Source: Takakia lepidozioides
Lineage: Eukaryota; Plantae; Bryophyta
DNA: 64,000 nt
Assembly: GCA_030704615.1 (NCBI GenBank)
Contig: CM060731.1
Span: 81,840,001 to 81,904,000, forward strand
Reading direction: 5' to 3'
In this document: one piece after another, positions 10,746 through 56,299 of the stretch
Layout of the letters: each line of letters opens with the position of its first letter
Numbering within the stretch: position 1 is the stretch's first letter
Program-made: the position numbers and the translations under genes
Notes under the pieces: generated by a model
Databases searched by the model: none
Told to the model about the DNA's origin: nothing
What the model saw: the letters and a program-made list of their open reading frames with translations, nothing else

Positions 10746-11181
10746 GGGGAATGCTTGCGCGTGAGCCTGGCTAGGCTCACGCCACGTCAGCAATCATCCA
10801 CGTGTGCAGGTCCTAATTCCGTGCTTCCCCCCCCCCCCCTATTACCGTGGATCAGTTGTCGCATATGTCCCTTTCATCGCCCCCACATGAATATTCTTTC
10901 CGACCGAGAACAATGGTAGGTTTGTGGATGGTTTAGGATCGAGGACATGAGTTTTGAATGAGGAGATCGTCTACTAGAGAATTGAATATTAACAGCAAAC
11001 CCTTTTTTTTGCAAAGTAGTTCATTCATTCCAACCCACAAACATTTTCCAATGCTGGAATCTGACGACTCACCCCAGGCAATCCTTAACTGTACTTACGG
11101 GAACGCGCGAAGATCTTGAAAAACAGTTTGGGGATGGAAGCAAAACCAAAATACATTTTATTAAATCTCACTACTTGAACC

Positions 11182-14100
11182 TCAAGAACTATTGGAGGTT
11201 TCAGAGGAACTACTTCCAGAGTCTGCAGCAATATCATCTATGAACACAACAGCCCATCCTTGATGTTTTTTTTTCTCCGCGACCCCCATGGAGAGGCGAA
11301 TACATTGTTTGTTGGGACAACACCCGTGCGCAAGCTTCCGCGTAAACCGGCAAGCGGTAAGCTCTAGGGGGACTCGGGGACATGTAGTATCCTTGGAAAC
11401 CGAAAGGTGTCTGCGTATTCGATGACGCCTACCGAACTTTGGAAAGCAAGAAGAGGAATGGTGGTAGATGTTATCATCCAGAAATAGACAATGTAAGCAA
11501 CCATCTGTCGAACGGGAATGACACAATGAAATGCAACATATTTTGCACGACTAGAGCCGAACTTACTCACACTCAAAATCGGAGTCCACGTCGAGATCCT
11601 CGTCAGGCGCTTCGGGCTCCTCAAGAAGTCCCTCCGTGGATGGGGCAGAAGTAGTGCCCGACTCAAGCTGATGAAGCTCGCTTGAGAAGAGCTCCGTATC
11701 AGCCTCCATGCCAAAGAAGTGTCTTCCAGCGCTTTTGCACGCATGAAAAGATGCTCTTGCAAATCGAACATGAACGAGAAATCAAAACAGGGTTTCCCTA
11801 AGCTCACTGCCCACATTTCAAACACAGTGTTCAGGGCCCCACCTGTTCCCATAGACAAGTCAACCACTCGTCCACCGTGACGGCTGCATGTCTCCACCAA
11901 AGTCTGCATGAAAGCTGGGGATTTCTCCCATGCACCTCTCCAAGGGACACCAGTCGACCTTTTCGTGGTTCGACCCGAGTCCACGTAATTGAAGATTACA
12001 TCATCCTCCACTGGCTCGCAGGTGGGGTCAATGTGAGCTGCAAGGTCCCTCAACTGGAACTCAGCAATACCAGGAGGAAGAGTGTCCTTACGCACCCTCA
12101 CCAGGCACAAAGCTTCAAACACCCGAGTCTGTCAACAATCACGAAGAGAGCATGAGGCAAAAGACTAAACCAACTTTTGACATGTACATCAGAACCACTA
12201 AACTTTAATTCAAAGGAACCAACTCACTTTCTGCCCCGGGAACTCGCCCTTCGTAAGAGGCAGAGTGTTGATGCATGTCCAAGTTTTGATGACACGAAAC
12301 CCGGAAGCTTTCATGTAGCTGAAAAGAGTTCTCCGTGCCGACATGTCCTTTGACTGCATGAGAAGAAGAGCCCCCGAGTCAGAAAGGAATTTGTTGTTGA
12401 ATGAGAAGGCCCACTGCCAGTAACGAGAATCCGATTTGTTCCAAGTGGGGGTTGAATTGGAAGGCAACACATCAGGGACAGGGAAACTGTCAGGAATGTC
12501 CAGCACCACAAGGTCAGTCGCGTATGCCTGCTGAACTCCATTCACCCAATCCGGCCTTTTTGTGACCTACAGCCAAAAACAGGAGACAGTGTCACAAGCC
12601 CAATCTTGATCCAACAGGAAATCAATCCCATCGACAAGCTAGAACAAGTTGTCAAAACAAAATTATTCACACAACAGTTAAGACATATGTGCTTACCTGA
12701 GTGAGGAACAAAACAAGCATGTCCCATGATTTTGAGGGCACCCCTTTGAATGTAGACTTCCTGGATTCCATCATTGCCAGAAAACTTTCATTCACCATCT
12801 TACGATGGAACTGGCCCAAAACCCTGGATGGATGTTCTCTCGCATCGAAAGGCTGCTCCCGTGACTTTGCTGTTCTCCTTTCCCTCCTAGTTGGAGAAGG
12901 CTGTCTTTCAGTGACCTCTGACGTCCCTGTTCCTACGGAGCTGCACTCTTCCCCTTCCCCTTCGGATCCCCGGCAATCTTCCCCTTCCGTTTTGGAGTAG
13001 CAGATTTCTCAGGCTCTTTTGCAGCCAGAGCAGCAATGATTCTGTCATGAATGTCTTTGTCAGCCAGTGGGGCAAGTGCCGCGGCGTTGTCGTTAAGGTT
13101 TCTCAAAACAACTTCATCGAATGGTGTGTCATGTGTGTCCTATTTTGGCAGATCGAGGTACCACCCACAGTCTCTGAAGTGCGCCCTGCTCCAGTCTCTG
13201 GCAATACCAGCCGTGTACATTGTCTTGTCGTTGGAGGGGTCAGCTCACGAGTAGATGAAGTCTGGGTCATCGCTAAGGTACTTTCCCGGTATGAGGACAT
13301 GATACATATACCTGAATGACACACACACCCAAAATCCAGACAGTCAATCGATCTGATCAGGACACAGATCACACATCACGAGAAGTGTATTGGCATGCAG
13401 GTCAGTAACACTGATAAACCAACGTTTGAAAGCCCGATTCAACATTGCGTTGACGCAATGTTGATTTGAGCTGAAATGGGAAACATCAAATTTGGAGAAC
13501 TGCACTTTCAACAAGCACGTACGAGAGGGAAAGCCCATTATACTAAAACATCTCATGCACAACATTGGAACCCCAATCAACCTTGCGTTGACGCAAAGAA
13601 GATTGGCGGATACACCTATGATAATGTAGCATTGAAAGAGACAGTGCTTGGCAACGGAATTCAACATTGCGTCAACGCAAGGTTGTTTTCATTAACAGAG
13701 AAAATGGAAAACAATGATTGAAAAACAACATCCGAATATCTGCTGGTATGGATATTCAACCTTGCATTGACGCAAGGTTGAATTCCTCTGCTGAAACACC
13801 TGTCCAGGGTATTTTTGATACCCTTAACTTTCCTACAATTGTATGGAAATCGGGGTATTTTGGCGGGATTAATCTAGCAATCCATACCGTCAAACAACGT
13901 TGCGTCAACGCAAGGCTGTTTGATGGTACAGTGTAAGCTCTAAACATCATTTCAAACAGACTCCAAACCGACTTTAAGTTAATCCTGGCAGCATTGCAAA
14001 TGGAAACCACCAAAAAAACAACCCAAGAACACAGGAAAACCTACACAGCCAGGCCCTTCATCAACCTTGCGTTGACGCAAGGTTGATTTGCCTGTCAATT

Positions 14101-17100
14101 GTTTCCCTTTCACATGCAGAATAACGACTTCATTGGATACCCCAGGTACATGAAAGTGAAACCAAAACAAATGGATACAAGCTTGTGTTAACACAATGTT
14201 GCTCGGCTGCACGTCCAGAGCCTTCAGAGCTCCCTGAAAACCTCCGAATTCGCAGTTCTACATGGAAAAAACGAAACAAGAATACAGAAACATACACTTC
14301 AAGTACCAGAATTGTTTCTTGGAGGTCACACCTATACAACACTCGTTTCATTGCTTGCTCGCTGTTGTACTGGTTTTTGAATTCGTAGGACCTGGAGATT
14401 CTTTTTTCTCTCTCAAACTCCCTGAAAAACAGTTGTTCCAGACAGCGAGCTTCCATCTCCTGATATAGGCCTCCAGTGTGATCCGGGGGCAAGACATCTG
14501 GATTTTGTAGTTTGCCATTGACTCCCCAAGTGCAGCCACCGCTCATTTTTCCAACTGCAGCAAGAAATATCATAAAAATTGTGGAGAGAGCACGGAGCAG
14601 CACAAGCATTTGAAAATGGTTTTGTGGAAACTTTACCTGGCTCTAGAAGGTTGCTTTGTGTAGCCACTGGTCGAATGTGTGGTCGCTAACAACTTTTATT
14701 GCTTGTGTCTTGGAGTCCCTCTCAGGAGATGGGAACATGTTGGTGTCTCTCACAAGTGGATCGGAATTCCAGATCTCCAACCACCTGATTTTGGTTGCAT
14801 TGTCCACCATTGAAATGGAAAGGCGATGCAGTTTTTCTTGGGTCATCTCTGGCTTTGAGCCATACTTGTCATAAGGTGCTTTCACCTGTTCCAGAAATTT
14901 CGTGCCAAGACTTGGATCTGCTATGCGGATTTGTTTGTCGAACGCACTCATGAGGTTCTTCCTTTGATTGTTCATCTCGAATTTCATTATGTCCTCAAGC
15001 CCAGTAGCAGACCTCTGCTCTTCTGTGTGGGAAGCATAGTACTCTGCTTTCGCCTTCAAACCAGTTTCTGCTATTTCTTGCTGCATACATTACAGGGAGA
15101 AAGAATCAAACATTGCCGTTTCTTGATAAAATTTGCAGTAACAACAATCAAACAGATATCAAGAAGCATACCGTGTACATGTAGTCAAGAAAAGCCTCCC
15201 TCGTCAGGTTGTACCATGTGCTTGTCTTCTTTTCAGCACACCTCTTCATCTGCTGAGGACTGAGCACGTTCGTGAATGACTCCACTGGCATCAGCCCTAT
15301 CTTCTGGATACGGAATAGAGTGTGGCAGAGATTTGTCGTCACATGGGAGGTTTCATTGGACCTGGAAAAACCTTCAACTCATAAGATGATTTCTAATTGT
15401 GCAAACGCAGATCGGAAGGGGAACAATGTTGGTAACTTACTTGTTTATGTCGTGCATGGCTGTCAAGAGCTGCGTGACACGTCCTTTGTGGTTGAGTACC
15501 ATGGAAACCACGCTCCAATGCCATTCGATCTCGTCCGAGTGCAAGCTTGAAATGTAATCCATCCAGGCAAGTAGTCTATGGTTCCCATCCCAGACAAAAA
15601 ACATCTTTCCCATAAACGCTTTTGTGGAGGCCTTTTTGGACAACTTGAACTCAAACTCCCTGTTTACATCCTGCCAACATGCATCCCAACTTTGCTCTGT
15701 CTCCTCTGTTACAGGACACTCCTCTCCTTTCGTGTTCACAATGGATACATAGAACACAACAGATCCCTTGACATAGCCGTGAACAAAATCGTTCTTCAAC
15801 TTCGTGATGTCGTTCCTCAATGCGGGTCGAACCGCGGGCATGGAGATCATCCTGCATAGTGGGATAACCAGGTTTCCGCCGGGAACCTCCATCGACAGAA
15901 TCACCTTCGAGGAGTTCACTTTCTGCCCACCCATAACCTCCTCGGCCTTGTCTTCATAGTGTCCCTCAAATGACTCCTCCTCACCATCACCTTCTGCCAC
16001 TTCTGCATCTCCCCCCACGGATTTTCTTTTTCTTTTCCTCTGCACAGAATGAATATCCCAGTGAGTGACAGATTGAGCTCCCATGGATCTACCTTGCGTT
16101 GACGCAAGGTTGATTGATGGGGATGCAGCTTAGTCTGAAATGCATATAGTCCATTGAACCAACTAAATGCTTTGCGTTGACGCAGGGTTCTTTTGGTGGC
16201 TTCAGATAATCGACTTTCCCTACATTGCGTTTCCTGGTGCGAGACTTCAGATGTAAAGAGTGGCATCAGAATCAGCCTCGCGTCAACGCAAGGTTGATTC
16301 AAGTGCTGAATCTGCTTCATGTCACCTTCATAAACAAACGCTTTGGAGGTTGACATCAACCTTGCGTTGACGCAAGGTTGCTGTGGAGCTCTCAGATTGG
16401 TGTTCAACAAACAAAAAAATCACATGGAAAGGCACATTGCAACTTATGGTTTCTTCTTGGCACTGTATGATGCACCGGGAGTATTCAACAGTTCCATGGC
16501 TGCCAGGCATTAAGGGTTTGTGGGATTGAACAGAAAAGGCACACGAATCAACCTCGCGTCAACGCAAGGTTGATTCGAGTGCAGCATCTGCACTCGTTTC
16601 ATGCCCAGAACATACATTGTGGAGGTCGACATCAACCTCGCGTTGACGCAAGGTTGATGTCGACCTCTCTGATGAGCATGGAACAGACAAAAAATAAAAT
16701 AAAGAGGGTGGATAGTCACCTCTGGTTTCTTCTTTGCACTTGATGATGCTCCTGAGGCATTCAACTTTTCCATGGGGTCTGGAGGCAACATACTTCCAAG
16801 GAGGTCCCGGTGGTGCGAAACAACGGCAGACGGTATGGTCTCTGTGTCCATGTCTCCTCCCTGCTCTCTCAAGACCTGGTTCTCCACTCGCAGTGCTTCC
16901 TCCTGAGCCCAGCTGACTTCCTCGTCCTCCCCCCCTTCAATTGGAGGTTGCTCTTCGTTCGCCTCCGGGATCACTTGAAGACCTTTCTCTCCAAACAGTG
17001 GTTGCAGAATCGGGTTTTGGCGTTCGTCCTCATCTCCGCCGGAGGTTTCCTCTCCCATTATAAGTTCCCGTCTCGCCTTCCTCATCCTCTCCTTAGCGCG

Positions 17101-17169
17101 TACCCTTTGCTTGTTTGATGTGAAGTAAAGTGTTCTTCGACATTTTCTTCTCCCTCGGGATATGGTCAC
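11182..17169 (-). pseudogene. Multi-exon ParB/Srx-like plus beta-class amino-methyltransferase-like gene (element A)
   Basis: Exons encode IPLCRMISMPAVRP...FFVWDGNHRLLAW (15437-16084), QEKLHRLS (14643-15086), CGWYLDLP (about 13150), DLVVLDIPD...W...FLSDSG (12210-12545), WEKSPAFMQTLVETCSRHGGRVVDLSMGTG (about 11845-11945) and ASFHACKSAGRHFFGMEAD (about 11700-11757); at least one in-frame stop near 13247. Confidence 0.75.
13441..16655. repeat. About 12 dispersed intronic copies of the palindrome AACCTTGCGTTGACGCAAGGTT
   Basis: Copies near 13441, 13579, 13663, 13758, 13895, 14063, 16090, 16172, 16275, 16358, 16550 and 16633, lying between coding exons. Confidence 0.85.
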
Positions 17170-17861
17170 CGTCTCTACAGAATCCAGGGTTGCAAAGACA
17201 ATATGGAGAAGAAGGAAAAAAAGGGGCTACGGTTGTTTCAGCGCAAGGCCTTCCACGCCAAGATGATCGCTCGGATTGACCTATGCGCCACATGCTCATT
17301 CCACATGCATGGCGAACACGTGTCCATCTAACCGTTATGTATATCTCCGGAAATTATTTTTTCCTCATCCACCGAAATTCGTTCGGGTCCACCTCTCATC
17401 CGAAAAAGTTCATTGATGAGTAATAGCTTTTGGGATGTTTCAGAGGAATGTGAAGTATATACAGTTGTACAGCGGTGCAAGTGCCGTTAAAATTGAATGG
17501 AAATGGGCATCTCATCTGGAATCTCTGACATGACAGGCAAATGGCGGCTCTGTCAGTGAATCTTGCTGAGTTGGTTGTCCAATGCACTGGTGGGGCACCT
17601 CTGATAAAACAGTTGCATTCTTTGATTAGGGCTGACATTATCCACTCCGCATTTGGGCACTCTGCGACCGTCCACTTGGGTCGCATGGGGACACATTTCT
17701 ACGATGTGCCGAACCGCGTTAGGAGACCTGCAAACGGGTGCGACACCTGCAACTGTGTGTAAGGACGTCATCTATACAGCCAAAAAACTCCGCTCTAGTA
17801 CAACCTGCAATCAGAAGCAACGTCGGACTGTGAACTGTTCGTTTTGAAGCAACATTGACAG

Positions 17862-18328
17862 ATGGCTTCCCAGCCCATGGGCTCCATTGACGCGGACTTC
17901 TTCAATGAGGACCACCCTGTTCCCTTTTCTTACGAGGTGGAAGATGACGGTTTTGCGGTGGTGCATGAACACGTGCTCGCAACGCAGTTTCGGTTGGAAA
18001 ATGGAACTCTATTCCTTGAAAGGGAAGTTTACGATGCCAATGGAAAACTGCTCAAGTACGCGTTCCAGAAACCTTCGCATACTGCACCAACCACACAATG
18101 GAGAGTGACTCCAGGTAGATACAGGGTGCTCAGTGCTCCTCGGAGACAGTCTGCAGGATCGTTCGTTACTCCTGGCACGGCAGCATCAGTGGCCCAAGGA
18201 AAAACACCCGTGGTTGTCAAGAAGGAGTCAAGTACCGTTAACACTGTAGTTGAACTTTCGGACTCATCCTCCGATGACGCCTGTGAAATACTGCCCGTGG
18301 ATCAGCCATGTCCACATCAGGAAGCAGA
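17862..18328 (+). pseudogene. Transposase A, N-terminal part
   Basis: Homologous to the N-terminus of transposase B (DDGFAVVHE...WRVTPGRYRVL...RRQSAGSFVTPGTAASV); similarity ends at about 18328. Confidence 0.85.
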
Positions 18329-19499
18329 CACTACAACAGATTGCGGCTTTTACGTCTCTGTGTTATGACTGCAAATGCAATTATGGAAGCCATTTACGAC
18401 TTCCTGACTCTGAAGATGTAAAAGCCTAGTCAGTTGTGACATGGCAGATATGACTCTCCAGGTTGGCTGTGACGTGGCGCCTGAGCAGCTGTGGGGGTAG
18501 TCATACACGCTGGCTTTACTGAATGACTGAACGGACAGTGTAGTCCATGTCAGCGGTTGTGCAAGAGTGGCACGTGCTCAATACAGGAAATGACACGTGG
18601 CAGAATGTTCGCTCTCCATGACGGCGAACTATAACTACGGGCGTGCTAATCCGGTTGCAACACGTGGTGCGTTGCAATTTTTACACGTGGTCCCTGAGCA
18701 GATTGACATGTGTCATGATGGGTGTTTTTTTGGGTGTATTGCTATTTTTTTACATATTTGTATTTCTGCCACGTGGTGTAGTACTATTGAAGAGTGAAAA
18801 TAGATGTAGTCATTATTATAACTATGATAGCAGTCGTGTACATGTCTATTACAACAATGAAATATAATATATAATACAAAGAGAACAAGGCAGCAAGACA
18901 TAACTGCAACAAGCTTAGCAAAACCAAGAGATTGTACACCATCTCTATTTACCAATCTATTTATCATTATCATTTTTGTCGCGATCTAAAAATACATAAA
19001 ATAGTCACATGTTCTCATGTGAATTATATTGTCTAACTATAACACTTTGAAAAGTGTTCACCTAGAATCTTCTGACTACTCATGTATTCCATCAATCTGC
19101 AACCCATCAAAAACTAAGGCTTGCATGGCTTTAAGAATTACTACAGCAAGGACATCTGTTTGTTTTCCAAGTTCTTGCATAAGATGCACCAACCAACATT
19201 GCATTGTGAGACACTCACTCGCTATACTCCAAAGCGTCCAGGGAAGGTCACTGAGCAACCTGCCAAGGCGGAAACAATTAAGAGAATTATCTAATACCAT
19301 ATATGAAAAACCAATGCCAGTGTTGTTTATGGTAACTTCTATCCCATGGACTCGTAAACAAACCAAAGCAAAAAGGTTGGTGTGTGTTGGCGAAGTCGTC
19401 AGATACTTCACAAATAAACATGCACTAAAAATGAGAGCCAGGAGGATAGGAAGGTCACTCACATTTATACAAAGACGTCTTGCCCATTGCCCAGCACAC

Positions 19500-21430
19500 T
19501 GCGTCACCCACACTCTATCTCTACTCCTTCAGCTATCCATGCCTCTGCACAAATCAAGCATTCATCCTTGCCTTGCTGCTAGCAGCTGACAATGACAGCC
19601 TACATTTGTTCTAGGAAACACCCAACTCAGCGTAGCACACTAGTTCCTATGCTGAATTGCGTCTGCTACTCTCTGAAATGTAGCAGGCATTCACCTTTCT
19701 GCCCCGGTTGACCCATCAGTGACTGGTCTCAGATAAGTATTCATTCCACAACTTCTCCTCATCTCGGTTACCTATTTTTTGACACTTTTCTGTTGTCACA
19801 TTGGAGTATCATGTCAAAGTCACTCCAAACTAGATTCACTCAACCAGCTAACTTGCAGAATTGAACATGTAAATTTAGGGCCGATTCTGATAAGAGGGAA
19901 AAACAGGGTGAAATGTGTTGAAGAAGATGCCTTCATTAGCAGTGCCTGATTTTATCACTTGTGCCGCTGCTGCCAGTTGACCATCTACCCATGCAGGTTT
20001 CTTGTAGCTTTTGAGAATCACAGGTAATTTTGTGCTTGAAATCTGGCCCTCTTGGATGAATCTGGACCCACACGAAATCCCTGCTCCTTCAGCTATCCAT
20101 GCCTCTGCACAAATCATGCATACATCCTCGCCTTGCTGCTAGCAGCTGACAATGATAGCCTAGAATTGTCAAAGCAAACACTAGCAGGGAAAACAGGGTG
20201 AAATATGTTGAAGAAGGTACCTTCACCCGTTTCCCCATCATTTGCTTTCAGGTGTCCAAAGCCCCATCCCGCGCTCCTACTCTGCACACCCTGCAAGCAT
20301 CGCATTCCACAACACCACATCTGGTTCAGCCATAGTGTTGAACACTCCCTTGGCATCCTCAATGCTCCCACATTTAGCATACATGGCCACCAGAGCAATG
20401 TTTAGGATGACATCTGGTACAATTGCAGATTTGATGGTGTCACCAGGGATCTCTTTGCCCTTTTCTAAGGCTGTCAGACGCACTGCAAACGCACACAAAC
20501 GTTATGTCGGCGGCCTTCACCCCTTCCCCCATCATTTGCTCAAAGGTTGGAGCCTCCCCAGTTGTGCATACCCTGCAAGCATCGCACTCCACGACACCAC
20601 ATCTCGTTCAACCACAATGTTGAACACTCCCTTGGCATCCTCGATGCACCCACATTTGGCATACATGTCCACTAGGGCAGGGGCAGTATTCAGAAGGACA
20701 TGTGGTAATTTGACAGGCATTCACCTCCTGACTTGGCTATTCCCAACCCATCCTGCCATTGGCAACAGATTCCACAGAAACTGATAGTTGTCTGTTTGAC
20801 TGTATAACTATGTATCTCTTGCTTTCTTACAGCTTGTACTGTGACACGCGTAATGCTCTTGCTGTATTGAATCACTTCACGCCTTCAGGTTTCAGAACAA
20901 ACATTACCGTCTTTCTTTATCAGACACGTGCACCAAGACAGAATCTCACCAAAAGATTGTTGGTGTTCAATAGTACCATACATGAAGATAACTAGCACCA
21001 AAAGGGCATATGAAGCTTACACTGCTCTCCACTGGTATTAACCTGCACTAGGACTTTCAATGGCTGTCTTCCAGTCCACCCATGGCCCGCTGTAAATGGC
21101 TTGCAACCTACAAATTTTCAAGAGAGCTGATTACCATGAAAATTTCAAAATTGGATTTACAAACCTAATAATTCAAGCATAATCAGCATTCAAGCTAAGG
21201 AAGCTTTACAAGCATCGTGTTGCGAGTAAAGCCTTTGCAATGTCACCAGGAAATCCCTGGCTGAATGGATGAAACTGAAATAATGGAGCTTGAAATCTGG
21301 CCCTCTTGGACGAATTTGGGCCCACACTCTATCCCTGCTCCTTCAGCTATCTATGCCTCTGCACAAAATCATGCATACATCCTTGCCTTCCTGCTAGCAG
21401 CTGACAATGACAGCCTAGAATTGTTCCAAC
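19500..21430 (-). pseudogene. Degenerate PLS-class PPR gene fragments
   Basis: [20 protein letters not shown]...[14 protein letters not shown] (20532-20720) and [20 protein letters not shown]...DVVLWNAMLAG (20277-20498); frameshifted; a ~100-bp piece recurs at about 19525, 20080 and 21335. Confidence 0.85.
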
Positions 21431-21489
21431 AAACACCCCCAACCCTACTATCAACAAGCAATGAGCTAACTTACAAAATTCAATATGCA

Positions 21490-23100
21490 TCTCAGGGCCG
21501 AGTCTGATGAGAGGGCAAAACAGGCTGAAATAGGTCGAAGAAGAACCTGTGCCCTCACCACACTGTCCTTGATCTTGTGTCATGACCCATGGAGGATTTG
21601 ACCGACAAAAGGACCTCTTGTGTGTGATGCTTGTGTCTGTAGTCAGGTAATGTCGGATTGGTCAGTGAGAACCTGCACCACGGTGCAGCTGAGCAGGCAG
21701 ACATTGAAATACGGCCTGCTAAGACCAAGCTGACTCTCCCAAGAACCTTATAAACATCAGGAAGAATATCAAATCATGGTACTAATAGGAGCCAACAACC
21801 CACATTTGCAGGATGGACAAACTTCTCACATCGTACATTAAGAAAAAGCCACACTTTGTGATTGCGGTTGTCGCACCCTCGTGAAGGATCTTTAAAAAGC
21901 TCATGCCAGCTCTATTCCATGATTCAAATTCAGGGCAGAGTCTGATGAGAGGGCAAAACAGGCTGAAATAGGTCGAAGAAGAAGGTGCCCTCACCACATT
22001 GTCCTCGACCTTGTGTCATGACCCATGGAGGATTTGACTGAACATGAACCCAAGATGACCTCTAGTGTGTGCTGCTTGTGTCCGTAGTTAGGTAATGTCG
22101 GATTGGTCAGTGAGAACCACCACGGTGCAGCTGAGTGGGAGAGATTGAAACACGGCCTGCTAAGACCAAGCTAACTCTCCCAAGAACCTTGTAAACATCA
22201 GGAAGAATACCAAATCATGGTACTAACAGGAGCCAACAACCCACATTTGCAAGATGGACAAACTTCTTCACATAATACATTAAGAAAAAGCCACACTTTG
22301 CGATTGCGGTTGTCGCACCCTCGTGAAGGATCTTTAAAAAACTCATGCCAGCTCTATTCCATGATTCAAATTCAGGGCCGAGTCTGATGAGAGGGCAAAA
22401 CAGGCTGAAATAGGTTGAAGAAGAAGGTGCCCTCACCACATTGTCCTCGACCTTGTGTCATGACCCATGGAGGATTTGACTGAACATGAACCCAAGATGA
22501 CCTCTAGTGTGTGCTGCTTGTGTCTGTAGTTAGGTAATGTCGGATTGGTCAGTGAGAACCTGCACCACGGTGCAGCTGAGCAGACAGACATTGAAACACG
22601 GCCTGCTAAGACCAAGTTGACTCTCCCAAGAACCTTATAAACATCAGGAAGAATATCAAATCATGGTACTAACAGGAGCCAACAACCCACATTTGCAGGA
22701 TGGACAAACTTCTTCACATCATACATTAAGAAAAAGCCACACTTTGCGATTGCGGTTGTCGCACCCTCGTGAAGGATCTTTAAAAAGCTCATGCCAGCTC
22801 TGTTCAATGATTCAAATTCAGGGCCGAGTCTGATGAGAGGGCAAAACAGGCTGAAATAGGTCGAAGAAGAAGGTTCCCTCACCACATTGTCCTCGACCTT
22901 GTGTCATGACCCATGGAGGATTTGACTGAACATGAACCCAAGATGACCTCTAGTGTGTGCTGCTTGTGTCTGAAGTTAGGTAATGTCGGATTGGTCAGTG
23001 AGAACCACCACGGTGCAGCTGAGTGGGCAGAGATTGAAACACGGCCTACTAAGACCAAGCTAACTCTCCCAAGAACCTTGTAAACATCAGGAAGAATACC
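21490..23100. repeat. Tandem repeat, about 440-446 bp unit, about 3.6 copies
   Basis: CAGGGC(C/A)GAGTCTGATGAGAGGGC recurs at about 21493, 21931, 22373 and 22819. Confidence 0.92.
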
Positions 23101-25164
23101 AGCGGAGTCAGCCTGGTTAAACGTATGCAGAAGGGTGGCAATCTAGGCAACTGCTTCTTTATGTTCGATCACGTCAAGAGGGTTAAAGACTGGACCACAA
23201 TGGCATGTCATGTTTACGACCCTGTGTACCAGCGTGTCATGACAATTGCAGTGTGTGACATGCAGTCAGAGGACACAGATTCACAGCAGCTCATGTGGGA
23301 AGCTCTCATTCGTGTTATGGCCTCCAATGGTCTCCCATCTCCCAATTTTGTTGGTTTCATGGCCGACAGTGCTCAAGCTAACTTCAATGCTGTCCGCATT
23401 GTATTCGGGACGGGAGATCCGAAAGTGCCAATGCCTGGAAGAGAACGTACGTGTCTTTTCCATTGGACACAATCCCTGGATAAACACACAAAGGCAGACA
23501 TCAAGCCAGATATGTAGAGTATGCATCGTCAACTGTGCAAACAGTACAAAGACGCCAAAACTATGGGGGAAGCGAATACATTGTTCTAGACAATTCGTGC
23601 CTGGTGGTACTCATCTGAAGCGGCATCGGAGGACAGCATGAGGGCACTGGAAGACTGGTTTGCATTTTGGCACTTCCGTTACCGACAGTGGGGAGCGGCC
23701 ATGACAACGGTGAGCGGTTTGCATTCACCTTCATTTGGGTGCTTTGGATATATCTTTCAGGGTCCCATTCTAATATCGGCTTTGTGTTTTTCTGCCTTGC
23801 AGCATATGTCCATTGAGGAGATGGCGGACATGCCGTCTTGCAATCTAGCGGAGACAATGCACAATGTCTGGTTGCAGCAATCCGGCAAAAAGGGAAGAGA
23901 TTTGTATGCGGCTACGGCCGATGACCTTATCCGTGCTCTGCAGCAGCAAACCAGATACAGGTCATTCTTGAGGGGTGGCCTTGGAAGCAAAGGCCCGGAC
24001 AAGAGCGAGTTGATGTTGCGGGCAGCCCGAAGATCGGGGGATCCCAGCAAAATAGCGCGGGCAGTGAGCACATGTGCAGATGGCACCCCTCTCGTGGGAA
24101 GAGTTCCCCATCTGGAAGGCGAAGAGAGATTCGGGTCTTGCAAACGGAAATTGGATACCCCTCCCGGATCGGATGCAGACTCCCATAGGGCGGACAGGGT
24201 CAACTTCTCAACGCCACATGTTCCCTTGGATCAGAGATGGAATTGCGGAACATCCACAGGTGAGGGCCATTCTGCCCCAGACCGGACCCCTGCATCAACC
24301 ACTGTCACTACAATGGTTGAAGACCAGAACGTGGTGCGGCATGTAATAGAGTCCATGTGCTTGGATGAGGTTTGGCATATAGAACGCACAAGTGCTGGAT
24401 CGCGTGTGAAATGCGCGGCGATCAGGGCCACCAATCATGAAAAATGTACATCATTAATATCCAGAGGGAAAGAACGCACTGCAGCTCCTACATTCACTGG
24501 TTTAGAGACAAAGAACCACAAGTTTTGGTTTTGCGCTGACAATTGCGGGAGATGTGTGCATGGGACAGTGAGGCCCTCCATGGTGAGGAAGCCTACTCCA
24601 CCAACCGTGTGGCCTGTGAAGATAGGCACAGGTCTCACTCACCAAGAGATCGCAATGCTGGAAGAGGCAGGTTTCTCCCTAGCCAAACATTCCATTACGC
24701 GTGAAGGTGCTTCAAGTACAAGCGGTTCATGGGTACCTCCGCTTGACGCTCACTTGTGGCCAACCAGACGGAATGGGAAGTTGGTTCGACGATTCCCTCC
24801 AACCGCAGAACACTATGGCAAAATCGAGTCCGCGAGAATGCTTCACGCTCGTGTTGCGGGAACAATGGAAGTGCCTGATCCAGGGTATGGTCGGGTCTTC
24901 ACCATGATCTCATCCGCATCTGCGCTGCAGGACAAGATGTACGACATCACTGTTTCCAATTTTCCAAATTGTACCTGTCCTGATTTTGTTGGTATGCTTT
25001 CAAGTAGTTTGGGAAAGAGAAGGAAGTTCATACCGTGCAAACACCTTTACTTTGTCTTCTTGAGAAGGATGGTTTGTGATCCAAAGCGGGACTTCTTCAT
25101 TCACCGAGCCACTATGAGTTTCAACGAAGTCAACACACTTCTACAGCGAGATACAAGCCCATAG
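23101..25164 (+). pseudogene. Transposase A, MULE DDE core plus SWIM zinc finger
   Basis: FMFDHVKR (D1), FMADSAQA (D2), TCLFH (CxxH), CNLAETMHN (E), SWIM CTCPDF...PCKHLY; intron 23710-23802; premature TAG stops at about 23515 and 23587. Confidence 0.88.
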
Positions 25165-25364
25165 AAAGCATTCACTTGACACTCCGAAATCTGTGTTTTC
25201 CTTGACTACAACTTGTAATGGAATGACTGTTCAAGTCCAGTGTCTCTCAATGTATGTCGTCTAACATCTTTGCTATGCGTGGGTCAATGCATTTGTCGCA
25301 TTGGTTTGTCATTTTGTTTTCATTAGCAAGCACAAGAAACTACCTTCAGATAGACAGATGATCA

Positions 25365-25625
25365 AATCAACCTCGTGTTAACACGAGGTTTACTTGGAGT
25401 TTTCCAAATCCCCCTTGTGCCGACACAAGGTTGATTTTAGTTCTAAGAAAAGAACACCGTGTCAACACGAGGTTGATTCGGAGAACACGAGGTTGATATG
25501 AAGTTCTCCGAATCAACCTCGTGTTGACACGATGTTGATTTTAGTTCCAGGAAAACAACCTCGTGTTAACACAACGTTCATTTCAGTTCTAGGAAATGAA
25601 GCTCATGTTAACAGAAGGTTGAACT
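25365..25625. repeat. Subterminal cluster of the palindrome variant AACCTCGTGTTRACACGAGGTT
   Basis: About 5-6 full or partial copies just inside the right end of element A. Confidence 0.8.
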
Positions 25626-25832
25626 CCAGGAAAGCCCAAAACCCTTCATCCATTTCACCTTCATGTGGTGATATCAGCAGTTGGGGGCCCCATGGTTATA
25701 GGCCCACCTTCTTTGTGGTGACGTGGCATGACCTGGACCAGGCTCACGCCATGTCTGCATCAGCGCCACGTCATCATTGTGTGAGCGTACGCTCACGCGC
25801 TCACGCGCCAGGCTCACGCGGTAGCGTCGTTG

Positions 25833-31447: not shown

Positions 31448-31664
31448 GGGGGCTGCTATTTCATGAGCGGCATGAGCATGAGCGGGAAAAAAAAAAAGCA
31501 TGACCATTGTGAGTCCACGGAAATAGGGTTAGGAGGCACAGAAATAGGGTCATGTGAAGTTGGAATGTGGCACCAGTGGACTTGAAATCCAACATTTTAT
31601 TGCAAATTTTGTGGCAAGCCACATCTATACAAGTGTGTTCTAAGTGTCATAGCCGGAATGGGCA

Positions 31665-34600
31665 CTACTCTCCTACACCCTCCGAGGAACTTGCCCCACC
31701 TTCTTCCTCATCCCCCTCATCCCCCTCATTCTCCGAGCTCTGTGATGCATCAGTTCCACTATGCCTCTCAAAAATCCCGTCCTCTCCTTGGGGGACTGTC
31801 CACCTCACCTCCTGGGAATCTTCTGCGTCTTCTCCCCCACTTTCCTCAGCAGAATCCAAGACAAATCTACGAGCCCGACGGGCTCTAATAGCTGCTGCCT
31901 CCTCCCTCATCTTTATTTTCTTGAGGCTTGCCTCGTCTAAAATCTGCTGTACACGACTAGGTTTGGAACACCTCCTAATGGACACCGAAGCAAGCCGGGC
32001 AGCATAAGTAGGAAGGATGTACTCCCTTTCTGGACTAGGCATGAAATCCCCCCTGGCAAAAAAGGCACGTTCCTCCTGCCCATGAACTCCGGTGTAGATG
32101 TCCCTCCGGCAGTACTTGGCATCCTACAGTAAGAACAAATCCACTTCAAGAATGTCAATACCAGCACAACCAGAAAGGGTTTTCAATGAAATAAGAGAGC
32201 GGAGGGAGGTGCCTCACGAAATTTGGAGGCAACTTACAATGCCACCACTCACTCGTAAACCGGGGGCTCCTCGGCCTCGATCCCAACTTCCTCCCCCTGC
32301 TCCTTCTCGGATTTTTCCTCATCCTCCGAGGATGCCTCTTCCTCTTTCGGCAGACGTTCAGCCGCTGCAAGTTCCGAGTTGTGGAGGGCAGTATCTGGCT
32401 CGAAGGCGAACACATGCCTGTCGGACAACGTCCCTACCCACATTGAAGCACCTGAGGAACAAAGCGGGCGGTTAATAGCTTGCGGCATGCAATTGCAATC
32501 GGGCCAGGGGACAAACTGATCACGTGAAGGCTTACCCGTGCCGCATGTGAAGTCCAGAATCCGCCCTTGGACATCCGAGCACGTCTCCATGAGGGTTTGG
32601 ATGAAAGCAGGGCTCCGAGTCCGGCTGTACCGCCACGGTTTGCCTGTCGTTGTGTCCTTCGGCATACTGGAGTGGGGCACATAGTTGTAGAGGACATCGT
32701 AGGTTACAGGGTCCACAGCGGCATCAACAAGACGACCGTCGTTGCGGAATTTGAACGTAGACCCTCTCTTCACAAAGCAATATGCCTCAAACACCAATGT
32801 CTGCACATCCAACAAAGAAGGGATCAACTCCAAGGTCTACTTAACATACACCACAATATGAAGTGAATGCAATAGATTGATAACTTACACTTTGGCCCTC
32901 TGTTCGCAACCCCTGTGTACTGATGCAGAACCATTTTCTGAGGAGGACTAGGGTGACACTTTTGGGTGTCCACCTTGCCACCGCATTCTCTGTGGTCTTC
33001 CCTCTCGTGGCAAGGACAACCACACATCCACCGTCATCCAGAAGCATCCCCGCCAGCCCAAACCCGGCTTTCCAGTAGTCCTCAGTAAACCTGTTCCAGG
33101 TGGGCACACCATCCAGGCCCTCCAGCAGCTCCCCATCTGGAATGTCGAGGAGAATCATGTCGCAAGCTCTCTCCACCTCCCCCCCCCCTCGAGTGCTCTT
33201 GCAATTCGTGCTCATAGCCGTGAAGAATTCCATCATGGCTTCAAAACCAGGGGTGTCTTTAGGCTCTGTACCGCCAACCCTCTTCTTGGCTTTCCCCTTC
33301 TGCTCCGCCAGAGACTTGTTGTGTGCCACCTTCTTCGCCTTGGCAGCGAGAGCGTCAAGGAAGCTCTCATTGACGCATTGGATGATGGTTGGAGGTTCTA
33401 GCTTTGGCCTGTGCGTAAACGTCACCACCGAATACCGCCGTGTAGGCTCGCCCTCAAATGCCAACTTCTTGGCAGAGCCAGTCCCACTCCGAACTGACTT
33501 GGGAACCCGGACGACCGGTGACTGGGTAGGAGCAATAGCAGTCGCAGGACCTTGAACAAAGTCGTCGTCCGAGTCATTCTCTTGGGTCCCCTCCTGCGCC
33601 TCCTCCGATGCCCCGATGGTTTTATTCTTTTTGGGTGTTACTGCACTCACATGTTTCCTTGTCCTTTTCCTTTGGCCTTTACTCTTCTCATGCAATTTCT
33701 CCTGAATTCCTGCCTGAGCAAGCTCTGCCGCTTTCCTGGAGTTCACAAGCGCTTTTGCCTCTTTTGCACCCAACGGAGGCAGCGGAGCCCGATTTCGTCG
33801 GAATTCAGCATCCAGCTTCAATTGAAACTCGGATGGGTCGAGCGAGCCGGGCGGAAGGTCCACATACCAAGGGCAATCACGCAAATGTTCCAGATGCCAC
33901 TCCTTCACAATATCGTCAGTGTACATGGAGTCAGCCCCAGGGTTCCTCCATGCTAGGAAGAATGGTGGCTCGAAAGACAGATGACCTTTCTCCAAAAGGG
34001 AGAACTTGCAGTACATGCATTCATGAAAAACACAATGAGGTCCCTGAAATGCATATTCGGCACCATTTTCCCAGGTTGGGGCGGATGTGAGTGGGCCTAG
34101 AAATGGAAAAATGGCGCCGAATTTCGGTTTTCGGTGACTGCCACCCTAGGGACTTAGCCATCTTGGGAGCCCTGAACTGGAAATTCGGCGCCATTTTTCC
34201 CGGTTTGGCCCGAAGATGGCTAAGTCCCAGAACCGCAATAGGGTCTACAACTGGAAAAATGGCGCCAAATTTCCAGTTCAGGGCCACCCACCCTAGGGAC
34301 TTAGCCCGAAAATGGCCAAGTCCCTGAACGGCAATAGGGCCTACAACTGGAAAAATGGCGCCGAATTTCCAGTTCAGGGCCACCCACCCTAGGGACTTAG
34401 CCCGAAAATGGCCAAGTCCCTGAACGGCAATAGGGCCTACAACTGGAAAAATGGCGCCGAATTTCCAGTTCAGGGCCACCCACCCTAGGGACTTAGCCCG
34501 AAAATGGCCAAGTCCCTGAACGGCAATAGGGCCTACAACTGGAAAAATGGCGCCGAATTTCCAGTTCAGGGCCACCCACCCTAGGGACTTAGCCCGAAAA

Positions 34601-37600
34601 TGGCCAAGTCCCTGAACGGCAATAGGGCCTGGAACTGGAAAATGGCGCCGAATTTCCAGTTCCGGGCCAGCCACCCTAGGGACTTAGCCCGAAAATGGCC
34701 AAGTCCCTGAAGGGCAATAGGGCCTGGAACTGGAAAATGGCGCCGAATTTCCAGTTCCGGGCCAGCCACCCTAGGGACTTAGCCCGAAAATGGCCAAGTC
34801 CCTGAACGGCAATAGGGCCTGGAACTGGAAAATGGCGCCGAATTTCCAGTTCCGGGCCAGCCAGTCTAGGGACTTAGCCATTTTCGGAGCCCTGACTGGA
34901 AATTCGGCGCCATTTTCCCTAACACCACATGAGGCCTCTAACATCCTGAAATGCAAGGACTTGAAAGAAAGACAGCGCGTATGTACCTGTACAGAAGGCG
35001 CATTGCTGCTTTGTCCGCGTTTGGCTGGTCGGTGAACTCGTGGCTCCGGCGAGCATCTGCTATCTCCTGAAAGAATAGGTTGGTTTTGTAGAGCAGAAAG
35101 TACCTCGTCACATAGTCACGTAGGCTCTCTGCTGCAAGAGATATCTCCATCTTGAACTGATGTGCTTGTGTGTCCAGCTGCTCTTGCGCATTCGTCGTCA
35201 CCTGTGGAGATTCTCTATCAGATCGCTTTCCTGAAAAAATACAATGAATCCACCCCCTACTAGAGTAGAAGCCCCAAACGAAGCGTGGGGAAGTACCTGA
35301 AACCACCATGTCATGCGGTTCATCCACATGTCGAATGTGGGGTCAGAGAGTTTGTCCGGTTTGGGGAAGCTCCACATGTCCCTGGTACTTTGGGAACCAT
35401 TCCAGATTTGGAGCCACCGGGTCTGTCCAACCACCCAGCATATTCGTAAGCGCCAAACACCACAAAAACGAGTTGTTGCCACCACAATTTGGTTAAGAAT
35501 GTATCACCTTTTCTGTTGCATCCACACAGGATGTGGCTAGACGATGGAGCTTCTCCAATGTCATCGTGGGCTTCAGAACGCGAGAGTAGTGCTTCCCCAC
35601 CTCCACCAGAAAGTCGGCACCAAGGGCGGGATCAGCTATGGCCACACTTTACCATCCGCGACTTGTACTTTATGCGGGCCCTCACCTCCGCAGCTTTGAC
35701 ATACGATTCGAGTGCCGGGAGGGTTGGATTCTTCTCCTCTGACTCCATGTAGAACCTCCGCGCATGTGCCAAATCCTGCTGTATTTTCGTCTGTCAAGAA
35801 TGCGCACATAAGATTAGAGATCCTGCTCAACACAATTTCTTCTATTGGGGGAGGAGATTAGAAATCACGGTGAAGACCTTTTCTTCTATTGGGGGAGGAG
35901 AGACAGATTAGCTCAACAAAACTGTCAAGAGCTTTACCCGAAATATGTAGTCCACCATGGCGTCGACACTCAGCCTATACCAGGTTCTGTCTGCCTTTGC
36001 CTCCGACTTGCGCAGGAGGTCGGCACTGAGGGAATTGGCAAACTCTTGCACCCCCTGCTTCCCGACATCCTTCACTCGGAAGAGCATATGGGACAAGTTG
36101 GTGGCAATGAAGGCATTCTCAGTCACCCTGCAGTGCCACATTTCCATCAAACAATACTGAAATGGGAATTTTCATTATATATGAGGATTCGCAATGAAAT
36201 GACTTCCAAATTCAAAGTCCAAAAGCGAGAGGCGTTGTAACTTACGAGTTGATGTCCGCCATTGCAGCTTTGAGAAGACTGCGATCTTTGGGCCCCGCAA
36301 CCTTCAGCACAACACAATCCACGGCGAAATGCCAATCGAGGTCGTTGGGGTGGGCTTGGGCAATGTGCTCCATCCATGCCAGGAGGCGATGATTGCCGTC
36401 CCACACGTAGAACATCTTACCGGACAAGTGCTGGAAAAGAGGATCACCAGCAATCGATCTCTCGAACTCCTCATTTCGCGTTTGCCAATGGGGACCCCAT
36501 TTGTCCACCTCATCGGAAGTGTGGGCACGGGAAGCTCCGTGGTCGTTCTCAATGGAAACGTAAAACGCGGCAGACCCCATTCGATATCCATCCCGGAAAG
36601 AGAATTTCAGCTTGTCGATATCGCCTGGGAGGGCAGGTCTCACCACCTGCAACGGCAAAGGGGAATTCGAAGCTTGGCCGGGTACACCATGCCCCCCAGC
36701 ACCCTGCCAATGTTGATGTGGGTTGCCTCCAACATCTTGGCAGCGGCCAACTTCATATCCGCCTCAGACATGACGTCTGCTGTAGAGGGTTTTCCGGCAG
36801 CCCACCAGGACCGCCAAATCCAGCCTGTATGCTCCGGGTTTGGGGCTTGGGATGTCCGGGAGGATGTCATCCTGGTCAGAAAGCTCCCTGTCGTCCTCCT
36901 CAATAGGGTCAGCCACCTGCGAAACCACCTCCAGCACTCTCCCCGTCTCTACTGCCCTCTCCCTGGCTTCACCTCGAACTTGCACAATCCGTGCTCTTTC
37001 TGGTGTTCTTTCCTCTCCTCCACTCTCCACCGTATGGGTAATTGCAGGGGCTGCTCTTGCCCGCGATGGTCTAATCGGTGTGTTACTGCCTCTTTGTGGT
37101 GTCTTGGAGGGATCCACCGTCTCTGTGCGTCCCTCGCTTACATTGGCATCTGTCATTTGGGCACCCCTGGCCTCTTCAGTGGCCTTTTCTCTTTCCTCTT
37201 GGCTAGCATTCTGTCTCGTCTGTTCTTTTGCCCTCTCTTTTGCCCTCTCACGGGCTTTCTGTTTCTTACTAGGGCTAGCAGCAGGGGAGCCCTCCAGGAC
37301 GACCACCTTTGATTGAGGCGAACTGACACCCTCGCGCGCACTGCTCACTCCCCCCTCCGCAGCCCGTGACGGCTCTCTCGCCAGGGATTGCATGTGCTTA
37401 GCTTTCTTCTTTCTCTTTGCGTGGGCGGACCCTACTGCATGTGCATCAACAACCTCCATTGCCGGATCTGCTGTCCTCATGTCCTCACGCCCTTCACCTG
37501 CCATGCCGCCTGCACCAACCTCCCCAATGCCTATTATGTCGTACTCTCGTTGCAAGTCCTCCCGTCCACCAACAAAAGGTTTAAGTTTGCCCTCTCGCCC

Positions 37601-37651
37601 CAAGTTGGGCGACTCAAACATGCGATGAGTTGGAGCTGTCGATGATACCAC
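31665..37651 (-). CDS. Multi-exon ParB/Srx-like plus beta-class amino-methyltransferase-like gene (element C), probably damaged
   Basis: MFYVWDGNHRLLAW (36242-36658); CPWYVDLP and CDMILLDIPDG...W...YW...LLDDGG (32841-34016); RSPAFIQTLMETCSDVQGRILDFTCGTG then GASMWVGTLSDRHVFAFEPD (32249-32833); acidic terminal exon 31665-32042; exon structure and start codon inferred. Confidence 0.72.
34080..34920. repeat. Intronic tandem repeat, about 95-96 bp unit, about 7 copies plus inverted flanking units
   Basis: GGAAAAATGGCGCCGAATTTCC recurs at about 34261, 34357, 34453, 34549, 34643, 34739 and 34834. Confidence 0.92.
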
Positions 37652-38479
37652 CAGCGTGCCGGGCTCGTCGTCACTCTGTCATTCCCAAAAATCGTGAGAA
37701 CCAACATCGGTTCCAAAACCAGCATCGCAACGAGCAGCGCAACCACCATAGCAACAATTGTGTAACAAAAATGAAAACATAACAAGTTTAGGAAGTATGG
37801 AGAGCCATGCAACAACAATGAAAACAAATGCAACCATTGCCTGAGAATGACATGCACAAACAACCTTCTCCAGAGCTGCCGGATTTGCACACGCATTGCA
37901 AACAATCTAAGGTTCACTCAACTATCTAAGGTTCACTCATCCAGCGAAGCCAGGATGAAGATGCAAAAACAAAGCGAGGCAACAAAGCGAAAGCAAAAGC
38001 GAAATCGAACAAAGCGAAAGCAGAAGTGGCTTGCCTGAGAGTACTCGGCTTCAGTTGGCGCGGGTTGTGAGCAAGACACTGGAATCTCCTGCTGGAGCTT
38101 CAGTTTGGCCATGCGAGAGATTAGCCGTCGTCCGTAGTACACAGCTTTCAACTTCCGCCGCGGTCTGGATGTGAGGTCTCTCTCAGGAGAGCCACGCCCT
38201 TCAGGCGGCATAAGTCCCAGCCAAAATGGAAAAAGATCTCCGTTTTTGGGGTACATGCCTCGAATAGCACGTTAAACCAAGATTAGCATCAGATTTAGGG
38301 TACGTATCCAAGAAGCCATGTGTCGCCAGCCCGAATGAAAACGGATGGCGGTGGACATTTATTGCCCAACTGCGCAATTAAATGTCGGATGAAGCCCTCC
38401 ATGTCGGATGAAGCCCTCCATGTCGGATGAAAATCGACGGAACTAGGCCCGGAATTTCCAACGTAGAGGTAATTCGGAG

Positions 38480-40270
38480 CGTTGCAGGATGGAAATCCGG
38501 CGCCGGATTTCCATCCTGCAGGTAATTCGGAGCGCAGCAGGATGGAAATTCAGCGCCGAATTTCCATCCTGCAAGGTAGGGCGGCGCGCGAAATTTCCAT
38601 CACACAGGTAATTCTGAAGCGGATGGATGGAAATCCACCGGATTTCCATCCGCGCAAGTAGGGCGGCGCGCCAAATTTCCCTCACGCAGGTAATTCGGAG
38701 GCGGATGGATAGAAATCCGGCTCCGGATTTCCATCCGCGCAGGTAGGGCGGCGCGCCAAATTTCCCTCACGCAGGTAATTCGGAGGCGGATGGATGGAAA
38801 TCCGGCGCCGGATTTCCATCCGCGCAGGTAGGGCGGCGCGCCAAATTTCCCTCACGCAGGTAATTCGGAAGCGGATGGATGGAAATCCGGCGCCGGATTT
38901 CCATCCGCGCAGGAAGGGCGGCGCGCGAAATTTCCCTCAAGCAGGTAATTCGGAGGCGGGTGGATGGAAATCCGGCGCCGGATTTCCATCCGCAAGGTTT
39001 GTCGGAGAGATCCGGCGCCGAATTTCCATCCTGCAGGTAAGTGGAATCCCGGATGGATGGAAATCCGGCGCCGGATTTCCATCCGCGCAGGTAGCGCGGC
39101 GCGCCAAATTTCCCTCACGCAGGTAATTCGGAAGCGGATGGATGGAAATCCGGCGCCGAATTTCCATCCTGCAGGTAATTCGAATCCCGGATGGATGGAA
39201 ATCCGGCGCCGAATTTCCATCCAGCAGGCGTATGGATATTCGGCGCCGAATTTCCATTCGCCAGGTATTTCGAAGCGCTGAATTACCTTCCTGCAGGTAA
39301 TTCTGAGCGTGTCCGATTGATTTTTCGGCAAAAAACAAACCTAATCCTTGACTGCTAGAGGCAAATCGGAACGGCCTCGCACGGAAATTCGGCGCCGTTT
39401 TTCCATTCTGGGATGTTTTTACGACTTCCTTTGAGGGGGCCCCGATGGAAATTCGGCGCCGAATTTCCATCCGGGGGATGGTCTCTGTCGGAGAGGTGCC
39501 GGCCTCTCCGCCGCTCTGTTGGATATTCGGTGCCGAATTTCCGTCCGGGGGTTGAAATATGACGGCCAGGTGCCGGCCTCTCCCCCCTCCCCGACTGCAT
39601 TGGAACGGCCCCGGATGGAAATTCGGCGCCGTTTTTCCATCTGGGGAGGTTTTTATGTCGGCCAGTTTTCAGCCTGACCCCCCGACACGACTTCCTTTAG
39701 GGGGGCCCGGATGGAAATTCGGCGCCGAATCTCCATCCAGGGGATGCTCTCTGTCGAACACGTGCCGGCCTCTACGCCCGAGGCGACTTCATCCGGGCGT
39801 CCCCTGTTGGATATTCGGTGCCGAATTTCCGTCCGGGGGTTGAAATGTGACGGCCTCTCACCCCTCCCCGAATCTCCATCCAGGGGATGCTCTCTGTCGC
39901 ACACGCGCCGGCCTCTGCGCCCAAGGCGACTTCATCCGGGCTTCCCCTGTTGTATATTCGGTGCCGAATTTCCGTCCGGGGGTTGTAATGTGAGGGCCAG
40001 ATGGCGGCCTTTCCCCCGAGCCGACTGCATCCGAAAGGCCTCGGATGGAAATTCGGCGCCGTTTTTCCATCCGCGGAGGTTTTTATGTCGGCCAGTTTTC
40101 GGCCTAACCCCCCGACAGGACTTCCTTTGGGGGGATCCGAATGGAAATTCGGCGCTGAATTTCCGTCCGGGGGATGTTCTCTATCGGACAGGTGCTGGCA
40201 TCTCTGCCCCAGACGACTTCATCCGTGCGGCCCCTGTTGGATATTGGGTGCCGAATTTCCATTGGGGGGT
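38480..40270. repeat. Palindrome array between the divergent genes of element C
   Basis: Perfect 30-bp palindrome GGATGGAAATCCGGCGCCGGATTTCCATCC in ~70-bp units (38480-39260), then longer units with GGAAATTCGGCGCC (39380-40270). Confidence 0.92.
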
Positions 40271-40565
40271 AGTAATGTGACGGCACGGTGCCGGCTTCTC
40301 CCCTTCAGCCGACATCATCCGGACGGCCCCCCACTTTCTGACTGCATACTGTTGGCAGTTATTGCGCAAAGACCAGGGGCCTTATTCCGGAGACAAGGTT
40401 CATTAACACTTTGACTGTGGATTTTTGAGATAGTTGGCTCCCTGGATTTGGATCAGGCTTCGTCGCTTGGACAAATCGGCACTGCATTCCTTCCCATCGC
40501 TGCATCCCCCTTCTACCAGGGAGCTTCCCGCACGCCATCCTGACAGTCTTGTGTGCACATCTCCC

Positions 40566-41056
40566 ATGGCGGAAAACCCGAGCGCTACAGTGTACTGCCC
40601 TCCTCACGAGCATAGAGCTTCATTTCCGTGCAGAGGGGACATCTGTCGGGTGATGGAGAAATATCTGTGCGTTCGATACCACCTGAAACCGGGGTCGGTT
40701 TTTTAGGAGGAGGAAAGGAAGGACTCAAACGGCCTTGTTGTCGAGAGTATTATTGTGCTCCACGATGATTTCGGCGATGGCAGGGAATGGCGAGTTCCAC
40801 CATCGGACAACGTCATATACAGGGCTGTTGGGGACTTCATTTGCCCGCCAAATGCACTTTCTATCCTGGCGCCTTCCACGAAACAATCCGCGAATCAGAG
40901 AGTGGCTACCTCAAAGAGAGAAGTCCGCAACGAAGTAAATCCAGAGCCGAACCCATCCATGAAGACGAGCGAGAACCGGGTTGTTCACTACCTGTCCGAC
41001 TCAGACGAGGTCATGGAAGTTCCGAGGTCGTCCTGGAGATCAGGCAAGTCCTCAAT
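40566..41056 (+). pseudogene. Transposase C, N-terminal part, interrupted by element B
   Basis: Located where A and B have their transposase N-termini; similar features (EWRVPP...YRAV; VVHYLSDSD); continues at 53057 after the TSD. Confidence 0.6.
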
Positions 41057-56257: not shown

Positions 56258-56299
56258 GACAATATTCCATTCAAACTGAGATCCAACAGAAGCAGTTGT

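Follow-up and report, generated by a model that had tools for sequence, protein, structure and literature searches.

The question raised by a 64,000-nucleotide stretch of the Takakia lepidozioides genome (contig CM060731.1 of the assembly GCA_030704615.1, positions 81,840,001 to 81,904,000 of the forward strand; the whole stretch is hereafter called the window) is what a domain resembling the bacterial beta-class amino-methyltransferases (MTases), with DIPD in the place of the catalytic motif DPPY/SPPY, may be doing in the DNA of a moss. The domain lies in an accessory gene, copies of which are borne by three Mutator-type transposable elements of the window, designated A/B, C and D, and the copy with which the question started, copy A, belongs to the first of them. 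The reading preferred here, at a probability of roughly 45%, is that the transposons encode a pseudo-methyltransferase which has a ParB-like domain and would bind the palindromes of its own element rather than methylate DNA.

The presence of a beta-class amino-MTase-like domain was confirmed, and it is encoded by three exons at 11566-12566 of the minus strand. In the minus-strand translation of 11500-13400, exon a (12566-12228) contains motif IV within DLVVLDIPD (the DIPD codons at 12500-12489), PTWN and LSDSG; exon b (12128-11843), delimited with the help of the family alignment, contains EKSPAFMQTLVE and RVVDLSMGTG, with motif X at WRGAWEKS and motif I at DLSMGTG; and exon c (11756-11566), placed by splicing in the contigs of the RNA-like runs X7 and X8, contains ASFHACKSAGRHFFGMEAD, with motif II (GMEAD) and an acidic tail. 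The counterpart motifs of element C are CDMILLDIPD, LDDGG and RILDFTCGTG. All the motifs quoted in the initial annotation were found, in the order given there; its span of 11560..12545 misses about 20 nt at the start of the domain. A bacterial contaminant as the source is ruled out by the introns and by the nested plant transposons.

Searched singly against Pfam, the exons of the window returned no family, neither the MTase exons nor the ParB exons, while the PF01555 cut-off was passed by the homologs from the moss Ceratodon purpureus, P0001 (1147 amino acids) and P0122. The family profile, composed of 16 rows with the window exons included, matched CcrM with E=1.2e-4 and placed DiPd opposite DPPY; the same alignment pairs PkWN with DHWD, gprekd with HPTQKP, and DlsastG with DPFFGVG. 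The fold was read from the AlphaFold model of the homolog P0122 (predicted local distance difference test, pLDDT, 84), to which the window exons are tied through their collinear alignment with the family. This model was superposed on CcrM with Z 19.4 (root-mean-square deviation 3.2, 201 aligned), on M.BceJIV with Z 18.4, on M.MboIIA with Z 18.2, on M.PvuII with Z 16.9 and on N4CMT with Z 16.2, M.RsrI being also among the structural matches, and Foldseek returned a beta-class MTase match with E 5.7e-13. Thus, a Rossmann MTase fold in the order motif IV, target recognition domain, motif I is predicted, and DIPD sits at motif IV, opposite the DPPY of CcrM, so that both the beta-class fold and the permuted motif order proposed at the outset are borne out by the profile and by the superposition. 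The likeness to beta-class amino-MTases is not due to chance, as judged from the profile match to CcrM and the predicted fold.

According to PMC7544214, motif IV acts through its aromatic residue, which stacks on the base to be methylated, and through its first residue, which takes the proton, while the Phe of motif I contacts the adenine of S-adenosylmethionine (SAM); on the stacking, PMC10406627 and PMC4490356 agree. The search with exon a yielded 120 clusters, and the tally of motifs was made on 119 after removal of the unrelated P0096. At position 4 of motif IV, where the stacking aromatic belongs, the 116 clusters with a residue there have E in 65 and D in 30, i.e., an acidic residue in 95 of 116, and Y, F or W in none; position 1 carries D in 93 clusters and E in another 10 (n=113), and the W and the N of PxWN are each present in 115. 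The window copies read DIPD in A and C and EHPD in element D, and the (D/N/S)PP(Y/F/W) signature of beta-class amino-MTases is lacking both in them and in the clusters tallied. Motif I was reached by 17 stored proteins, in which the Phe of FxGxG is found in 0/17, the first Gly in 6/17 and the last Gly in 17/17, the window copies having GxG without the F. Since the motif IV aromatic is lost and the motif I Phe is absent, both halves of the active site are altered; by its motifs, the domain stands outside the catalytic beta-class family, the fold of which it is predicted to have. Of the two options left in the initial annotation, an altered substrate or a dead SAM/DNA-binding module, the second, in the sense of a dead or otherwise repurposed module, is preferred, because motif I is eroded as well.

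The claim that DIPD is not a product of decay was upheld by the family-wide tally, by RNA-like contigs and by the comparison of substitutions. The roughly 120 clusters related to exon a are less than 50% identical to one another, with the same non-canonical motif recurring in them, and no variant at a frequency of at least 1% is listed at the DIPD codons among the 111 contigs of run X1. The proportion of nonsynonymous differences (pN) is below that of synonymous ones (pS) in every exon compared among the elements A, C and D (in exon b of A and D, 0.42 and 0.79, respectively), with the synonymous distances (dS) mostly saturated, which at the level of sequence marks purifying selection between the elements. 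The junction of exons b and c is joined in contigs of X7 and X8, from two different studies, and the exon upstream is joined to the acceptor of exon a in X7; the status of these runs as RNA is a guess, and the contigs represent sister copies, no RNA run being listed for the exact window stretch. In one DNA run, 4330 contigs fall on 11300-17900, most of them less than 99% identical, and the family is therefore a multi-copy one. The motif itself is thus not decay, but the gene copy at these coordinates is a decayed pseudogene, with stop codons interrupting the frame near 13247, 13142 and 12935 and with AA as the acceptor of exon c. Copy D is broken too, by a frameshift, and most loci outside the window are fragmented.

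The pseudogene state of copy A was missing from the initial annotation, as were the Mutator element that carries it and the fusion to a ParB-like domain. The gene is a long spliced one, with a ParB/Srx-like domain at its N-terminus and the MTase-like domain at its C-terminus, all on the minus strand. Ahead of the MTase-like exons it has the ParB/Srx-like domain exon (15440..15922, with VWDGNHRLLAW), putatively assigned from sequence comparison, embedding and model; middle exons of the same gene, predicted helical (14646..15378), which match residues 382-585 of P0001; and an upstream linker exon with in-frame stops and a change of frame (12697..13319). In total, residues 220 to about 590 of P0001 are matched by the upstream exons of the window. 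The DGNHR of the N-terminal domain is invariant (4/4), and the model of this part (pLDDT 69, residues ~19-172) has PadC, KorB, Srx (sulfiredoxin), ParB, SerK and SbnI as its top matches. In embedding space, the ParB-like region comes closest to fungal DUF3723 proteins (PF12520; 0.96, 184/256 features), a family that Pfam did not match on the sequence of the region, and the search of the PDB sequences with the ParB profile gave no match. P0001 (Ceratodon M758_1G295400) is annotated at full length as a ParB-like and MTase-like gene with the near-canonical DTPF; it may have been domesticated, or may be a member of the family in which erosion has gone less far.

In 3/3 of the window elements, the accessory gene stands head-to-head with a Mutator transposase. 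Element A/B, 15 kb in length (10746..25832), lies in sequence resembling a long terminal repeat (LTR) retrotransposon and is flanked by the 9-bp duplication CCATGGTGA at 10737-10745 and 25833-25841, with GCGTGAGC motifs at both ends; its limits were set by comparison with an uninterrupted copy of the retroelement, in which the empty site is near 63816-63860. Its divergent Mutator-like transposase with a SWIM finger (17859..25164, plus strand), recognised from open reading frames (ORFs) and Pfam, is in pieces and has ~440-bp tandem repeats within it, at 21492-23100. Element C (31448..56983), with the 8-bp flanking duplication CAACCAGA, includes the accessory gene with DIPDG (37678-32252, minus) and a transposase (53120-56254, plus), and is interrupted by element D (41057..53047; 9-bp duplication GTCCTCAAT), the transposase of which is at 45198-41480 (minus) and the frameshifted accessory gene, with EHPD, at ~45544-52100 (plus). 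The SWIM finger of the window transposase was matched in Pfam with E=1.3e-4 and the Mutator-like element (MULE) family of Pfam was not; the identity as a MULE transposase of the DDE type comes from an atlas, in which the transposase of element D, homologous to that of A/B, falls among MULE clusters (0.95-0.93). The target duplications of 9 bp (or 10) in A/B, 9 bp in D and exactly 8 bp in C are of Mutator-type length, which is usually about 9 bp. Long terminal inverted repeats were not found in these elements, which have short degenerate inverted motifs only; non-TIR MULEs, i.e., those without terminal inverted repeats, exist. The end adjoining the 3' end of the accessory gene starts with a G run in A/B, C and D (10746, 31448 and 53047), and the end on the transposase side starts otherwise, so that the termini are asymmetric. 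The N-terminus of the transposase (42727-44400, minus; 53120-53566, plus) has a region rich in Cys and His that ends in HEHP and resembles a WRKY/GCM-type zinc finger, for which no tool gave a match. For the layout elsewhere, metagenome contigs were scanned with the ParB profile, and the 72 loci obtained, together with one locus of the viral scan, make 43 distinct groups. Upstream sequence of 4.5 kb or more is available in 19 of these groups; a divergent transposase was found in 9 of the 19 and a same-strand upstream one in none, and MTase-like exons, mostly decayed, follow downstream at many outside loci.

Each element of the window has its own palindrome of 22-28 bp, found with at most five mismatches in 13 copies for A, 36 for C and 19 for D, against 0 in five shuffles; with six mismatches the copies number 17, 38 and 19, every one inside the matching element. 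Those of element A, of the CAACCTTGCGTTGACGCAAGGTTG type, were located by motif scan as 12 copies at 13437..16667 and one at 25514, mostly intronic, and those of element C are centred on GGCGCC. They occupy mainly introns and spacers, partly as tandem arrays, such as the 116-bp array of element D with its own palindrome (46074-48341); 3 of the 13 element-A palindromes fall in the ends of stop-to-stop frames, which are probably intronic. A/B and D have the terminal motif GCGTGAGC in common and transposase cores that are 72% identical, yet their internal palindromes are different, and this suggests, from sequence comparison, that the palindromes change with the accessory gene, which evolves faster. 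At the outside loci, the palindrome GGGAGTCAAA...TTTGACTCCC recurs at L005:6808, L005:11598, L010:15674, L012:17133, L014:3975, L015:2, L017:4341 and L017:15111, and probably represents another repeat family.

The VANDAL elements are Mutator-like. In Arabidopsis, their accessory protein VANC binds family-specific motifs in the introns and intergenic DNA of VANDAL elements and demethylates them, the motifs being short and often in tandem arrays (PMC5735166). Family-specific motifs in the non-coding DNA were likewise found in the three elements here, also with an accessory gene of a DNA transposon; the VANC motifs differ as 9-mers in one orientation (PMC5735166) from palindromes of 22-28 bp, and the present protein differs in its ParB-like and predicted MTase folds. 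By this analogy, the likely purpose of the pseudo-methyltransferase would be to keep the element family transcribable and mobile against the host silencing by 5-methylcytosine (5mC), as VANC does for VANDAL. As it lacks the aromatic for stacking and its SAM loop is eroded, it would have lost methylation of the exocyclic amino group or retained it very weakly; a base- or DNA-binding cleft may persist through the Asp, the Trp-Asn and the motif X Lys, which are still present, a dimer could recognise the palindromes of the element, and the ParB-like domain might, as a clamp dependent on nucleotide, spread along it. Non-catalytic partners with a beta-class fold and an eroded motif IV are already described, METTL14 (EPPL) and MTA9 (NALW) (PMC7544214); unlike the present protein, they are paired with an active paralog, and none is encoded in these elements.

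Several results weigh against the proposed binding without catalysis. The ParB/Srx matches are each weak (Z 5.1-6.8, Foldseek E 0.019 or worse), and no upstream transposase was detected in 10/19 outside groups. The argument from palindromes is based on three elements, while at the outside loci 4 and 3 comparable palindromes were counted versus 0.6 and 0.4 expected, for patterns chosen after inspection. The tally of motifs was seeded with the DIPD exon and is biased against canonical members; the lone exception, the Ceratodon P0001 with DTPF at motif IV, came from a separate search. Finally, the catalytic Asp, the W-N, the Asp and the last Gly of motif I and the Glu of motif II are retained in the family, with GxG in the window copies, and such a set of residues would be compatible with SAM binding.

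The last point is also the strength of the view that the protein is still catalytic, as a methyltransferase whose site has been remodelled to DxP[ED], writing N4-methylcytosine (4mC) or N6-methyladenine (6mA) on the palindromes, or modifying another nitrogen or RNA, the mark blocking the host 5mC silencing. Besides the Asp/Pro of motif IV, W-N, the motif X Lys, the Asp/Gly of motif I and the Glu of motif II, it can invoke the acidic position 4, which is held rather than drifting freely, the DIPD codons free of listed variants in X1, and the active beta-class 4mC enzyme of a liverwort; but the stacking aromatic is missing in 116/116, the motif I Phe in 17/17 and the first Gly in 11/17, and the characterised eukaryotic 4mC enzymes retain SPPY. 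This view is rather unlikely. Equally doubtful is a non-catalytic helper of transposition, involved in end pairing, looping or target choice with no role in silencing, the palindromes being perhaps transposase sites. The tight linkage of the accessory gene to the transposase, the short and degenerate terminal inverted repeats, and the related DUF3723 family as a conserved cargo of the fungal Starship transposons speak for it; the termini, though, have their own repeated motif, common to elements with similar transposases, whereas the palindromes occupy introns and internal spacers, and each element has palindromes of its own. That the whole family is a functionless, decaying relic of a captured methyltransferase is hardly credible: copies A and D are broken and the outside loci mostly fragmented, as a relic would be, but the same non-canonical motif across the highly divergent clusters, pN below pS and the spliced sister copies largely refute it, leaving it true of individual copies only. 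A bolder scheme, improbable as a whole, would have phage-derived ParB-methyltransferase fusions in the Mutator elements of seed-free plants load on parS-like palindromes specific to each element and slide along it; with the rewired DxP[ED] site they would either add a mark other than 5mC or prevent or erase 5mC itself, as a self-targeting epigenetic immunity co-evolving with the palindromes.

With respect to the known systems, CcrM, M.BceJIV, M.MboIIA, M.RsrI and M.PvuII (PF01555) are alike in fold and in the motif order from IV to I, and unlike in that the present domain has D[IVL]P[ED] without the aromatic, a motif I without Phe, and a spliced, eukaryotic, transposon-borne gene. MpDN4MT1 of Marchantia and the bdelloid N4CMT are examples of the beta-class fold in eukaryotes, the latter with the Z given above, but they are active host enzymes with TSPPY/SPPY; MpDN4MT1 is set apart by its described motif, and an orthology to it as the cause of the odd motif is ruled out, the Marchantia enzyme retaining TSPPY (10.1101/2021.02.12.428880). 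DUF3723 (PF12520), the nearest embedding neighbour, is likewise a transposon cargo, although fungal, conserved in Starships and of unknown function (PMC9156397). Other ParB-linked eukaryotic methylases are listed in PMC4738411, in the passages of which the present one is not described; no literature description of this element was found, and subscription papers or supplements, e.g., that of PMC4738411 or the final Marchantia 4mC paper, could mention it.

The horizontal origin suggested initially is plausible, as fusions of the ParB-CTPase fold with an N6N4-methyltransferase are enriched in phages and prophages (10.1101/2025.10.10.680097) and unite, as the present protein would, both domain types in one protein of a mobile element; the protein here differs by the ~500-residue helical and low-complexity linker, by the introns of its gene and by the erosion of its active site. 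Neither prokaryotes nor viruses yielded a close relative that could stand for a donor: the word-pattern scan, which misses distant relatives, gave none among 27 candidates of genome_contigs for the ParB region and a 19-residue match only in viral_contigs, and tblastn of phages with P0122 gave weak DNA-methylase matches only (best E 5e-7). If the preferred reading of a palindrome-binding pseudo-methyltransferase is true, plant DNA transposons would have a second, independently built system of sequence-specific anti-silencing, made from bacterial or phage parts, in which a candidate protein, together with its candidate binding site, is supplied by each element. Should the domain be active instead, an amino-methyltransferase could function without an aromatic that is supposedly essential, and 4mC/6mA in seed-free plants might come from it. 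PF01555 matches in such genomes should not be taken for host writers of 4mC/6mA.

Two LTR-retrotransposon-like copies, at 58659-64000 (minus) and 25832-29740 (plus), are ~92-95% alike, and one of the two is the insertion site of element A/B. In both, a protease-like ORF is followed by a C5 cytosine methyltransferase domain and then by the reverse transcriptase, and the integrase is followed by a PHD finger. The capture of such DNA methyltransferases by retroelements has reportedly been found in dinoflagellates and charophytes. Further LTR-retrotransposon-like ORFs, for protease, reverse transcriptase, integrase and chromodomain-like and gag-like products, were recognised by eye at 1-4300 and 5100-6600.
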